26,824 bases of DNA, taken from a virus. Its lineage: Duplodnaviria; Heunggongvirae; Uroviricota; Caudoviricetes. The stretch is from the IMG/VR virus record IMGVR_UViG_2671180673_000010, positions 1 to 26,824 of that record; one strand, 5' to 3'. The notes under the pieces are model-generated. The model was given only the letters and a program-made list of their open reading frames with translations, was not told where the DNA came from and made no database searches. The first letter of the stretch is position 1. Each line of letters starts with the position of its first letter. Shown here one piece after another: positions 748-26,824 of this stretch. Position numbers and translations under genes: made by a program.

Positions 748-847
748 CGAAGCAGCAGACAAGCGAAGCGCGTCAGCGATACGGCACCTTGCCGACCATA
801 CTTCATAAGTGCAAAATACGAGCAAAGAAATCAATGGAGGCTGTCTT

Positions 848-1372
848 ATGGTCATTAATTACAAGCAGTTAAGAGAAAAACGGGAGCAGGTAAAGGAGAG
901 CTTTCGCCGCAATGAAGATCTGACCCCGCTTGTACGCCTTGCCCAGGGCATTGTTGATGCTTATGAAATCTCGCTGGAGCTGCCATCACAGACCTGGACA
1001 GATAGCGACGGTAATCGCCAGCATTACGTTTCATGCGGACTGGAAGCAGCCGAAGGATTTCGCAGAATGCCTTTATCCCAGATCCCTGCCGCTACCCCCA
1101 AAGCACGGGGCAGCAATGATGAGCGAAAACTGACTTTTAGTATTGAAACGGTGGTTGACGACACACCTGGCGAAGTCGCGTTCGTGCACACTCCTGTTTC
1201 GATCGCAATGTATAACGATGAAATACAGGTTCGCGTTAATAATAATATCGTGCCACTTAAAGAAGGTAATTCACCCTACACCACCGTTTGTGAAGCCATT
1301 CAATATTACGTTCTCTCTGAAATTGATAATCTCAAGCCTGACGGCACCCAGAAAATGGTTCAACTCTGGTAA
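848..1372 (+). CDS. Hypothetical protein, 174 aa (ORF track gives 809..1372; ATG at 848 preferred because GGAGG lies 7 nt upstream)
   Basis: Long ORF with good SD, followed by hairpin terminator; AT-richer than flanking phage genes; no motif I recognise; convergent with portal gene Q. Confidence 0.6.
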   Translation: MVINYKQLREKREQVKESFRRNEDLTPLVRLAQGIVDAYEISLELPSQTWTDSDGNRQHYVSCGLEAAEGFRRMPLSQIPAATPKARGSNDERKLTFSIETVVDDTPGEVAFVHTPVSIAMYNDEIQVRVNNNIVPLKEGNSPYTTVCEAIQYYVLSEIDNLKPDGTQKMVQLW

Positions 1373-1375
1373 AAA

Positions 1376-1403
1376 GGACAGCCCCATCACGGGGCTGTTT
1401 TTT
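1376..1403. terminator. Bidirectional intrinsic terminator shared by the 174-aa ORF (+) and the Q-P operon (-)
   Basis: Stem acagcccc (1378..1385) / ggggctgt (1391..1398), loop atcac, T6 downstream on plus strand and T5 on minus strand; Q stop codon sits in the loop. Confidence 0.55.
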
Positions 1404-2433
1404 CATCAAGAAGAGCATAAGAGTTAAAACGGATCACCTCTTCGCCAAGCCAGTCATTGATGTGCTTCATAGCCTCCATAACGGGCATCAGCTCGTTAAT
1501 TGCGTAAACCCGCGCTGCCTTCTCCACATCGCCAAACGCACTTTTTTCGCCCGGCATCGCCCCCATCAGTTGCGGCGGAACGCGGTGCGCAGCCAGCACA
1601 TCATCACGGGATGCCGCCTTAACATTCATGAATTCATCTTTTGCGGTGATCTGCTGGAACGGCAAAATTTGCACCCCCTCTTTGCCCCCGTTGGGCGCAT
1701 GAATGAGCACGTTTTTAAACGCACCACCACCACGTGCCCCCTGTAGCGTTTCTTTCAGGGAGTCCATGCTTTCGCGGTTTACCTGCGCTGCACCGATGTA
1801 GATGATGCACCCGGCGTGGGATCCGTTGTCGTAGTACAGTTTTCTGAACATGTCCGCCGAATGAGAAAGGCTGGCCGAGAGTAATGCGCCAAGATATTCC
1901 GGCATGCCGTAGATTTCCTGGTTAATATCCGGATTCATCAGGTGGCACACTTTGCCAGGACGAAACTGGAACGCGTCCTTGCCATCCTGCACATACCACC
2001 ATGATTCAAGATCGCTTCCGCGTCGCATGTATTTCGCCAGGGCGTGCCGTAATTTAAGCGGTTCGCCGAGCATATTGCTTCGAAGCTCAAGGAATGCGTT
2101 ACCGAACACAAACCAGTCCAGCGCCAGCGCCGAGAAATCCTGCCGGGAAAGCAGCGGGTGCGGGATGTAGCAACCGAGTAATACATTGCGCTTAAAGTAA
2201 AGCGCAGACTGATGCCAGGACGTTTGCCGGGCAGCTCTTGCCAGACCGTACCAGCCCACCGGGGTTTCATACCACCGCCCGTTATCAGCACAGTACATAT
2301 TGTCCAGCAGGTCATGCCCGGTCAGGCGATAAGGACCATCAAATGTGAATGCACTGAGCGATGATTCTTTCCTGAGCGCATCAGCGAGATCAATGCGTGA
2401 ACTCATGCGCACTTTTTTATTTTTTCTGCTCAT
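1387..2433 (-). CDS. Q: Portal (capsid vertex) protein, P2 gpQ homologue
   Basis: 348 aa, position and size match P2 Q; start overlaps the stop of P; adjacent to terminase ATPase. Confidence 0.85.
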   Translation of the reverse strand: MSRKNKKVRMSSRIDLADALRKESSLSAFTFDGPYRLTGHDLLDNMYCADNGRWYETPVGWYGLARAARQTSWHQSALYFKRNVLLGCYIPHPLLSRQDFSALALDWFVFGNAFLELRSNMLGEPLKLRHALAKYMRRGSDLESWWYVQDGKDAFQFRPGKVCHLMNPDINQEIYGMPEYLGALLSASLSHSADMFRKLYYDNGSHAGCIIYIGAAQVNRESMDSLKETLQGARGGGAFKNVLIHAPNGGKEGVQILPFQQITAKDEFMNVKAASRDDVLAAHRVPPQLMGAMPGEKSAFGDVEKAARVYAINELMPVMEAMKHINDWLGEEVIRFNSYALLDEKTAP

Positions 2434-9000: not shown

Positions 9001-9142
9001 CCCACCCACATGGGGAAACCTCGGAATATGGGGCGACCGCCTTCTGGATGCACTGGAAACCTGTAACGCGGATAAACGGGCCATTGCTGAACTGGATAAG
9101 AGAATAGCCGAACTGACACACCAGACGGGAGTAACACAATGA
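8861..9142 (+). CDS. Outer-membrane lipoprotein spanin (Rz1 / LysC-like), overlapping the Rz gene in another frame
   Basis: Lipobox LLTGC 15 aa after the Met, Pro-rich stretch PVTPPPFPDPPTW; starts inside Rz and extends beyond it as in P2 lysB/lysC. Confidence 0.6.
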   Translation: MNAPTLCLTLVLLTGCAGTQNAPGPAPSVRLIPQTLTMPVTPPPFPDPPTWGNLGIWGDRLLDALETCNADKRAIAELDKRIAELTHQTGVTQ

Positions 9143-11016
9143 CCAGTAAGAACTTTGCACTGATTACAGCCATGACACAGGCTGAACTGACTCAAAAGGT
9201 GAATGAACATCTTGCGAAAGGGTGGCATCTTCAGGGGGAGACGCGGGTTGCCTACGAACCCGGCACCCCGTGGTATCTAATGCAGGCAATGGTGGCCGAT
9301 GGCACTACAGACATCTCACCTGATTCCCCCCAGCACGGCAGCGTGCCGGAGTGGTATTACGTGGTGGTACTTGCTGGTCAATCCAATGCCATGTCATATG
9401 GTGAGGGAATGCCGCTGCCGGATTCTTACGATGCGCCCCACCCACGCATTAAGCAACTGGCCCGTCGCAACACAGTGACTCCCGGTGGTAAAGCATGCGC
9501 ATTTAACGACATCATTCCGGCAGACCACTGCCTGCATGATGTTCAGGATATGAGCGCACTGAATCACCCGAATGCAGACCTGAGCAAAGGGCAGTATGGC
9601 TGTGTCGGACAGGGCTTGCATATTGCCAAACGCCTGTTGCCTTACATTCCACAGAATGCCGGGATTTTACTGGTTCCATGCTGTCGTGGTGGTTCGGCAT
9701 TCACCCAGGGCGCGGAGGGGACATTCAGCGAGTCCACAGGAGCCAGTCAGGATTCGGCTCGCTGGGGTGTGGGTAAACCTTTATATCAGGACCTGATTTT
9801 GCGCACGAAGGCCGCATTGCAGAAAAACCCAAAAAACATGCTGCTGGCCGTATGCTGGATGCAGGGCGAATTTGACATGAGCGCCGCTACGTACTCACAG
9901 CAACCTCCGCTGTTTACGGCCATGCTGAAACAGTTTCGTGCGGACATTACCGAGTTTAACACGCAGTGTCATGGAGGCAGAGCGGCAAGTGTGCCATGGA
10001 TTTGTGGTGACACGACGTATTACTGGAAAAACACCTACGGCACGCAGTACGACACCATTTACGGGGCGTACAAAAACAGGGAGAGCGACAACGTTTTCTT
10101 TGTGCCGTTCCTGACCGATGGTAGTGGCAACAATACCTCCACCAACGCACCAACGGAAGATCCGGATGCTGCAAGTGAGGGATATTACGGTTCGGCATCC
10201 CGAACGAACAAAAACTGGGTATCATCAAATCGCCAGACGCATTTCAGCTCATGGGCGCGTCGTGGCATTATTCCCGATCGTATGGCAACCGCTATTCTGA
10301 ACGTAGCCGGTCGCACCTTAGCCTTCATCAGTGGTAAGGCACCGGAAATCAAACCCTCGCCCGGCGGCGACACGCCATCGGGGCCGTCTGAAGATGCATC
10401 CGTACGCACAATCTCCCTGTTGCCGACAGCCGGAGATGCTGCTGCGCAGGGCTGGAGCATTAAGAATGGCGGAATTCAGTTGTCAGAAGGTGTATTTAAG
10501 ATCACCAAGCAGAGCAATAAAGCCTGGTCCCTGACGCGCCCGGTGGATGACGCAGTCTCCCTGCTGACACGGGGTGGCAGACTGAGCTGTAAGTTTCGAC
10601 TGTCAGGCGCACTGACCAACAAACAGTTCGGTCTGGGAATTTATCTGTATACCGATGTAGCGTTACCTGACGTCGTGGCGATGACCGGGACTGGTAACCC
10701 GTTCCTGATGTCGTTCTTCACCCAGACCACAGACGGCAAACTGAATCTGATGCATCACAAGAAAGCAGGAAACACAAAGTTGGGCGAGTTCGGGAATTAC
10801 AGTAACGACTGGCAGACGCTGGAGCTGGTGTTCACCGCCGGCAGTGCCACGGTTACTCCGAAACTGAATGGAGTGGCTGGCCCGGCATTCCAGGTCATAA
10901 AAGACAGTCTGACACTGGGGCTGAATGCGCTGACGTTAACTGATATCACTAAAAATGCCGCGTACGGCGTCGATATCGGCAGCCTGGTGCTGGAAATCAA
11001 TAATCCCGCAGCATAA
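9139..11016 (+). CDS. NanS-p-like sialate O-acetylesterase (SASA/SGNH-type) with small N-terminal domain and roughly 250-aa C-terminal domain
   Basis: VLAGQSNAMSYGEG (GQSN catalytic-Ser motif) and CWMQGEFD; N-terminal roughly 50 aa resembles DUF1737; start overlaps Rz1 stop (ATGA). Confidence 0.6.
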   Translation: MTSKNFALITAMTQAELTQKVNEHLAKGWHLQGETRVAYEPGTPWYLMQAMVADGTTDISPDSPQHGSVPEWYYVVVLAGQSNAMSYGEGMPLPDSYDAPHPRIKQLARRNTVTPGGKACAFNDIIPADHCLHDVQDMSALNHPNADLSKGQYGCVGQGLHIAKRLLPYIPQNAGILLVPCCRGGSAFTQGAEGTFSESTGASQDSARWGVGKPLYQDLILRTKAALQKNPKNMLLAVCWMQGEFDMSAATYSQQPPLFTAMLKQFRADITEFNTQCHGGRAASVPWICGDTTYYWKNTYGTQYDTIYGAYKNRESDNVFFVPFLTDGSGNNTSTNAPTEDPDAASEGYYGSASRTNKNWVSSNRQTHFSSWARRGIIPDRMATAILNVAGRTLAFISGKAPEIKPSPGGDTPSGPSEDASVRTISLLPTAGDAAAQGWSIKNGGIQLSEGVFKITKQSNKAWSLTRPVDDAVSLLTRGGRLSCKFRLSGALTNKQFGLGIYLYTDVALPDVVAMTGTGNPFLMSFFTQTTDGKLNLMHHKKAGNTKLGEFGNYSNDWQTLELVFTAGSATVTPKLNGVAGPAFQVIKDSLTLGLNALTLTDITKNAAYGVDIGSLVLEINNPAA

Positions 11017-25531: not shown

Positions 25532-26824
<1,293 letters not shown>

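Follow-up and report, generated by a model that had tools for sequence, protein, structure and literature searches.

Why does a P2-family prophage carry an extra gene, coding for a protein of 174 amino acids (aa), directly beside its portal gene, and what could the product be for? The question is raised by a stretch of 26,824 nucleotides from the IMG/VR virus record IMGVR_UViG_2671180673_000010 (positions 1 to 26,824, here called the window), in which a gene at 848-1372 on the plus strand converges on the gene for the portal protein, the homologue of P2 gpQ. A first-pass annotation of this DNA had taken the gene for a stand-alone moron, with defence or lysogenic conversion as its possible function. 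The window represents a P88-type member (genus Xuanwuvirus, Peduoviridae) of the P2-family prophages, from Escherichia coli ST131; over positions 1-1500 it shares 100% identity with the chromosome of an E. coli O25b:H4-ST131 isolate, and over positions 149-2500 it shares 99.8% identity with the induced phages vB_EcoM-569R5 and vB_EcoM-705R2. Our analysis indicates that positions 777-1404 are, with little doubt, an autonomous accessory cassette. A role of the encoded protein in phage exclusion or defence is put forward as a tentative candidate, which we hold to be possible at somewhat less than even chances.

The 174-aa coding sequence (WP_000236495.1) is supported by the ORF (open reading frame) call, by RefSeq and by a profile match to PHROG 5091 (E = 1.4e-67, 227.5 bits), in which residues 1-168 align with profile positions 1-164, a full-length match; that family is without annotation, and membership in it for this reason says nothing on function. 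Its ATG at 848 is preceded at a distance of 7 nt by the Shine-Dalgarno sequence GGAGG at 836-840, so that both the frame and the ribosome-binding site noted in the first-pass annotation are present. The homologues all begin at a common N-terminus, MVINY or MTITY, and for this reason the ATG at 848 is taken as the true start and the in-frame GTG at 809 is not. The dN/dS ratio against two alleles of about 95% DNA identity (L026 and L027) is 0.07-0.10, which is the same range as for the capsid gene next door, and one such allele of about 95% identity shows 21 synonymous versus 6 non-synonymous differences. Judged by these substitution patterns, ORF 848-1372 is a real gene under purifying selection and not a chance reading frame. 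Its GC content of 47.4%, against 53.9% for the window, falls in the lowest 5% of 525-bp windows, and the GC content at third codon positions (GC3) is 47% compared with approximately 60% in the portal and terminase genes; the AT-richness relative to the neighbouring genes, earlier perceived by eye, is thus borne out by measurement. The somewhat longer segment 777-1436 has a GC content of 46.8%.

The limits of the cassette were obtained by alignment with the phages P88 and PhiR44_2. The backbone is common to P88 and the window up to G776, after which P88 has 14 nt, GATGTGGGCTGGGT, and the window has 628 nt (777-1404, plus strand) comprising a leader, the gene and a terminator; homology to P88 resumes at a portal Asp codon at 1405-1407, as seen both in the alignment and in a codon-by-codon reading of the junction. 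The portal protein of P88 ends in ...D T Q P T S followed by a stop, and by manual translation this stop corresponds to the TCA at 773-775 (minus strand), which marks the left junction of the cassette and represents a relic of the portal stop in the empty, P88-type state. The portal gene of the window encodes 348 aa and occupies 1387-2433 on the minus strand (ORF call, with the C-terminus compared to that of P88); its last five codons have been swapped by the cassette, from TQPTS in P88 to EKTAP, and both its stop codon and its terminator are supplied by the cassette. A divergent E. coli allele with 56% amino acid identity (L011) has the identical left junction, and a Salmonella allele (63% identity) is found at the same place beside the portal. 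In the 3' end of the portal gene, 1405-1436, differences from P88 are denser than elsewhere in the gene and fall mainly at synonymous positions, as if a recombination tract had arrived together with the cassette.

Folding predicts a bidirectional intrinsic terminator at 1373-1403, common to the 174-aa gene and the convergent P-Q operon. It has a GC-rich stem (1378-1385/1391-1398), a loop at 1386-1390 and a T-run at 1399-1403, and its folding energy is -20.6 kcal/mol on the plus strand (z -6.6) and -16.9 kcal/mol on the minus strand (z -4.4); both strands have a U-run. The loop holds the portal stop, TCA, at 1387-1389. A bidirectional terminator with the Q stop codon in its loop had been described in the first-pass annotation, and the stem, both U-runs and the TCA can all be recognised; the Q stop lies inside the loop because the cassette brings along both the stop and the terminator of the portal gene. 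At the other end of the cassette, a candidate sigma-70 promoter of the form TTGCCG-N17-CAAAAT was identified by eye at 789-817 on the plus strand, with the -35 element TTGCCG at 789-794 and the -10 element CAAAAT at 812-817 (8 of 12 consensus positions). The segments CTTG(C/T)C and GCAAAATA are kept between the E. coli and Salmonella alleles and the spacer has diverged, and extended -10 boxes resembling TGnTAAAAT occur at a comparable distance in several members of the E217 type. A promoter belonging to the cassette itself is plausible on these grounds, if weakly indicated. An Ogr-type late promoter (TGT-N12-ACA), which was looked for by eye upstream of the gene, was not seen. Overall, the precise presence/absence junctions relative to P88, the terminator and the atypical base composition uphold the reading of this gene as a stand-alone moron.

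To survey the occupancy of the site, 5,426 complete E. coli genomes were searched. The query 777-1436 (660 bp) was found in 397 of them, in all cases with at least 80% coverage, on the chromosome and beside the portal gene, and the empty junction of the P88 type was found in 719. Filled and empty sites together account for essentially all of the 1,101 genomes that have the neighbouring cos-like block (see below), and the carriers, which include ST131, O55:H7, O111 and O145 strains, amount to 7% of the complete genomes. The 56%-identity allele was absent from these genomes, and the other occupants seen at the exact site were divergent alleles of the same family. The earlier expectation of variable cargo at this locus across P2-like prophages agrees with the hotspot as a whole; it does not agree with the exact site, which is either empty or filled by one gene family. 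The gene is absent from P2, from P88 and from about two thirds of the P88-like E. coli prophages (the 719 genomes with an empty junction). This is not the distribution of a structural or packaging gene conserved in all P2-like phages, against which the first-pass annotation had set its own proposal, and on the comparative evidence the gene is shown to be dispensable for the phage.

The cassette is bordered on its left by a non-coding block of backbone, 455 bp long (322-776), which all P88-like phages examined have kept; in the alignments it has more than 90% identity in P88, in PhiR44_2 and in the 1,101 complete E. coli genomes, whatever its flanks. Within this block the 19-mer GGTGACGGGGGAACAGCCC at 445-463 matches P2 cosL in 13 of 19 bases; the identical 19-mer occurs in a Salmonella prophage, and a version with 3 mismatches in Trabulsiella. 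It is probably the cos site of the P88-like prophage. The literature yielded no description of the P88 genome ends, and the paper on P88 describes neither cos nor the 174-aa gene. The block also contains a conserved ORF of 42 codons with a GTG start (576-704), listed as hypothetical in the P88 annotation, and a perfect 13-bp hairpin at 720-748 (-31.6 kcal/mol, no U-run). In phages with an empty site no other structure comes between the portal stop and this hairpin, which may act there as the terminator tQ. An Rfam scan of positions 1-1600 gave no match.

The arrangement bears on where the gene stands in the P2 map. In P2 itself, the 187 bp between the left cohesive end and the Q stop contain only the terminator tQ, and old and tin are located at the other genome end, separated from Q by the cohesive ends. 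The ST131 prophage has the order gpA, ParM, ParR, two cargo genes, IS421, the cos-like block, the 174-aa gene and the portal, so that the gene lies inside the interval gpA-gpQ, which is the P2 defence hotspot as defined by Rousset et al. 2022, and on the portal side of the cos-like block; the variable cargo sits to the left of the block. The first-pass annotation had put the gene at the edge of the old/tin variable region. This placement stands as far as the gpA-gpQ interval is concerned, and falls short in that the gene lies between the cos-like block and the portal, with old and tin across the cohesive ends. The gpA-gpQ hotspot of P88-like phages accordingly consists of two sites separated by the cos-like block, one of them hypervariable and the other with two main states.

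An ORF fragment at 1-141 had been suggested as a possible partner gene extending out of the window. It had to be rejected: positions 1 to about 148 are the non-coding right end of IS421, an element of the IS4 family, and lie outside the cassette. Related phages without IS421 match the window only from position 149, many copies of positions 1 to approximately 150-176 are present per E. coli genome, and in NZ_OX637964 the coding sequence of the IS421 transposase ends 22 bp before the window start (L012:10866-11978). In the ST131 prophage the insertion element sits within the variable portion of the gpA-gpQ hotspot and reads towards the cos-like block. No conserved adjacent partner was found, and the left-hand cargo that accompanies the 174-aa gene comes in at least three different sets, namely a 280-aa protein, a DUF4760 protein and IS421 in ST131, a ClpX-type zinc finger protein with a hypothetical protein in O145, and an XF1762-family protein in a bovine isolate. 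The 280-aa protein of the ST131 set, which has a weak PADLOC match to Csx27 (E = 1e-5), and the DUF4760 protein form an off-window pair (L012:9395-10774, minus strand); as a partner for the 174-aa gene this pair was likewise discarded, being on the other strand, beyond both IS421 and the cos-like block, and swapped in other carriers. It may itself be a candidate two-gene system. Rousset et al. 2022 (PMC9122126) catalogue the 280-aa/DUF4760 arrangement, the domain names of which do not appear in the main text of that paper. Further to the left, ParM- and ParR-like partition genes directly follow gpA in P88-like prophages (L012:8033-9311; also L001, L002, L003, L026 and L027), which fits the remark by the same authors that about one quarter of P2-like phages might persist as plasmids (PMC9122126).

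The family to which the protein belongs is considerably wider than the E. coli alleles. An exhaustive profile search gave 89 cluster representatives at E <= 1e-3, most of them 155-180 aa long, with the motifs MxITYxDIRxR, YxxSLxLPxxxWxD, TVxDDxPxGG and VCxxIK; some database entries of the family are truncated. The named sources are all Enterobacterales (Escherichia, Salmonella, Yersinia, Trabulsiella, Citrobacter, Lelliottia, Pectobacterium, Xenorhabdus, Providencia and Morganella) and consist of temperate phages or prophages, two plasmid records (2 of 72,556 searched) and one chromosomal islet without phage genes. No member in a virulent phage was found in the searches that were run, and two distant members used as queries against viral contigs gave no match. 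Single-gene relatives occur in at least four types of prophage, P2-like, lambdoid, HK97-like and E217-like. In P2-like prophages the relatives of Salmonella, Morganella and E. coli lie beside the portal, that of Trabulsiella directly after gpA, on the gpA side of the cos-like sequence, and that of Pectobacterium after ogr. Lambdoid relatives (phage CharmingMan and an E. coli prophage) are placed between the Q antiterminator and the lysis genes, those of Lelliottia and Citrobacter between the lysis genes and HNH-TerS, and those of Pectobacterium, Xenorhabdus and Providencia within the tail operons of E217-like prophages.

In all 14 loci examined the gene is AT-richer than its flanks, and in most of them a GC-rich hairpin with a T-run follows directly 3' of the gene, even inside tail operons. 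The family as a whole thus bears the moron signature, and its recurrence across the family shows that the gene works without a fixed neighbour. Two additional observations concern these contexts. The members of Trabulsiella (L004:6001-7369) and Pectobacterium versatile (L018:7001-8359) lie directly upstream of hicAB at different P2-like positions; between the two loci HicA is 62%, HicB 66% and the family member 28% identical, and hicA is there 91 aa, longer than expected for HicA. The three genes may form a recurrent module or may have come together by chance as hotspot cargo, and the adjacency is a weak association with toxin-antitoxin or defence cargo. Furthermore, the E217-like members at L017:7001-7535, L019:7001-7544 and L025:7001-7544 have canonical intrinsic terminators in the middle of tail/baseplate operons, where transcription of the essential genes downstream has to pass them.

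The protein itself has a mass of 19.8 kDa, a pI of 5.0, 25 acidic and 19 basic residues and no hydrophobic segment. Structure prediction, which had been proposed as a check on the gene, gave a confident result, the AlphaFold2 model based on a 61-sequence alignment having a pLDDT of 90.7 and a pTM of 0.81. The model is a single compact alpha/beta domain, in which an N-terminal hairpin of two helices is followed by about eight antiparallel strands and, at the C-terminus, one more helix, and a shallower alignment led to the same predicted topology. Scans of the protein against Pfam and NCBIfam gave no match, and neither did a Pfam scan of 61 family members. The PDB, searched by sequence and with the 61-sequence profile, and BFVD contained no match to it. 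Designed helical-repeat proteins in the PDB, obtained with a narrow profile (E = 1e-10), were dismissed as compositional artefacts since they were lost with the 61-sequence profile. Neither a signal peptide nor a DNA-binding motif was seen. The conserved residues are chiefly core hydrophobics and the acidic DD-P-GG tip of a hairpin, and the most economical reading is that of a binding protein, with nothing catalytic-looking about it.

What such a protein would do for phage or host can be approached from its location. The gpA-gpQ hotspot is known to hold protective systems, old-tin and three of the eight further systems tested (PMC9122126), and 81% of P2-like elements have defence-associated genes, compared with 28 of 1,511 that have known anti-defence genes (PMC13586616). 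The hotspot location and the frequency of defence-associated P2-like elements together give a high prior for exclusion, and the restriction of the family to temperate phages, the insulation from the late operons and the one copy kept outside a prophage fit with it. The following scheme would account for these features. The cassette would have entered a P88-like prophage by recombination, on the portal side of the cos-like block and five codons short of the portal gene's end; in the lysogen the gene would be transcribed on its own from TTGCCG-N17-CAAAAT, and the shared terminator would prevent collision between its transcript and the late transcript of P-Q. The protein would then bind and block, in a non-enzymatic way, a protein of an incoming heterologous phage, giving Tin-like exclusion to the benefit of the lysogen. 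An autonomous cassette combined with a Tin-like exclusion protein is our best explanation of the locus as a whole, one that we nevertheless rate below an even chance. A further step, that the protein represents a new family of single-gene phage exclusion or, with lower probability, of counter-defence, characterised by an unrecognisable fold, a purely binding function and spread by cassette in at least four phage types, is rather unlikely.

Several results weigh against exclusion, and they should be considered together. PADLOC-DB v2.0.0 contains no family that matches the protein at E <= 1, and no effector-type domain, membrane segment or catalytic motif was found in it. Taken over the whole gene, neither positive selection nor an arms race is apparent. 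The exact site, as far as the genome survey tells, is one with two main states and is not hypervariable, unlike typical defence loci. The promoter is weak, with its 8 of 12 positions, and a consensus scan requiring at least 9 of 12 gave no plus-strand promoter upstream of the gene. The lambdoid, HK97-like and E217-like relatives are oriented as late genes, and would therefore also be made in lytic growth. Finally, literature searches by accession and by UniRef, PHROG and FIG identifiers gave no paper, and thus no report of expression or phenotype for any member of the family.

The orientation of those relatives, which follow the direction of the late genes downstream of the Q antiterminator, ahead of HNH-TerS and in tail operons, is what would be expected of a counter-defence or host-takeover protein that is made in lytic growth or upon induction and neutralises an immune protein of the host or of a rival element, and a small, soluble, mildly acidic, non-enzymatic and phage-restricted product would suit that task. 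In the P2-like phages, however, the gene is convergent with P-Q and insulated by its own terminator, and the terminator present in most relatives fits better with an independent unit; moreover, the searches gave no member from a virulent phage, one member is maintained without a surrounding prophage, and the rarity of known anti-defence genes in P2-like elements (the 28 of 1,511 mentioned above) also speaks against it, so that we consider counter-defence improbable. We regard as equally improbable a lysogenic conversion function unrelated to phages, by which the gene would affect host physiology, stress tolerance or virulence, or would tune prophage maintenance or induction. It would be in keeping with the moron architecture and with carriage by 7% of the complete E. 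coli genomes, including the ST131, O55:H7, O111 and O145 strains, and the hotspot is known to hold partition systems and a cytolethal distending toxin as well (Rousset et al. 2022, PMC9122126). But the lack of a signal peptide, membrane segment, DNA-binding motif or enzyme motif gives no hint of the route by which such an effect would be exerted, and the family is tied to phage genomes and not to pathogenicity islands or plasmids, as the 2 of 72,556 plasmid records illustrate.

A much smaller chance is given to an accessory factor of packaging or head assembly, acting with cos, the portal or the terminase. The thought is suggested by the position of the gene between the cos-like block and the portal in the window, in Salmonella and probably in Morganella, and by the relatives of Lelliottia and Citrobacter directly before the HNH endonuclease of the packaging module. 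It is difficult to reconcile with the lack of the gene in P2, P88 and about two thirds of the P88-like prophages, the latter having near-identical portal and terminase genes, with the Trabulsiella relative on the gpA side of the cos-like sequence, with the other relatives in tail operons, after ogr or outside prophages, or with convergence to P-Q and a foreign base composition. Least probable of all is a functionless passenger or decaying remnant. No function, partner or motif could be assigned, and truncated entries occur in the databases; yet this reading is already largely refuted by the dN/dS of 0.07-0.10 and the 21 synonymous versus 6 non-synonymous differences, by the intact full-length copies in 397 complete genomes, and by the conservation of motifs and of a confidently predicted fold throughout the broad family. 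Phage exclusion thus stays the candidate that we prefer.

As hotspot cargo the protein is already known, since Table S5 of Rousset et al. 2022 (PMC9122126) contains WP_000236495 in at least 167 places; it is found neither in the table of tested systems of that paper nor in its other supplementary files. The locus is therefore a moron in a known phage hotspot, and the element as such is of a familiar type. As a moron from which an essential gene obtains both its stop codon and its terminator it is a clean example, and it has yielded a confident structural model for the uncharacterised family PHROG 5091. If the proposed exclusion is true, the protein would be a very small, effector-less, single-protein addition to the E. 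coli immune repertoire, and, being carried by a common prophage of clinical lineages (ST131, O145, O111 and O55:H7), it would bear on the choice of phages for therapy.

Two features elsewhere in the window may be mentioned. A 625-aa ORF at 9139-11016 on the plus strand, between the lysis and tail genes, has DUF1737, SASA (sialate O-acetylesterase-like) and DUF6645 domains, and by its domain content the product could be a carbohydrate-modifying or receptor-related accessory protein. This ORF also lacks a counterpart in the P2 map, so the earlier statement that the gene at 848-1372 is the only one in the structural region that cannot be placed there was not sustained. The host gene serS, for seryl-tRNA synthetase, occupies 25532-26824 on the minus strand, and the right end of the prophage must for this reason lie upstream of approximately 25.5 kb.

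It remains to compare the cassette with systems already described. The morons of temperate phages are said to have been defined for HK97 and HK022 by Juhala and colleagues in 2000. The cassette resembles them in being a single gene with its own terminator and a candidate promoter, in being inserted between genes that are adjacent in close relatives, in having a base composition unlike that of the host phage and in being dispensable, and the family is moreover found at the classic slots, that is between Q and lysis, between lysis and terminase, in tail operons and at the P2 genome ends. It differs from them in that its promoter is weak and a candidate only, and in that it is not cleanly intergenic, as it overlaps the last five portal codons and provides the stop and terminator.

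With the old/tin cargo of P2 the cassette shares the gpA-gpQ interval and the character of AT-rich accessory DNA, and its product, like Tin, would be a single small soluble protein. Unlike that cargo, the protein has no sequence or profile similarity to known defence proteins; the gene lies on the portal side of the cos-like block, whereas old and tin are at the right genome end of P2, across the cohesive ends; and its site has two main states and is not hypervariable.

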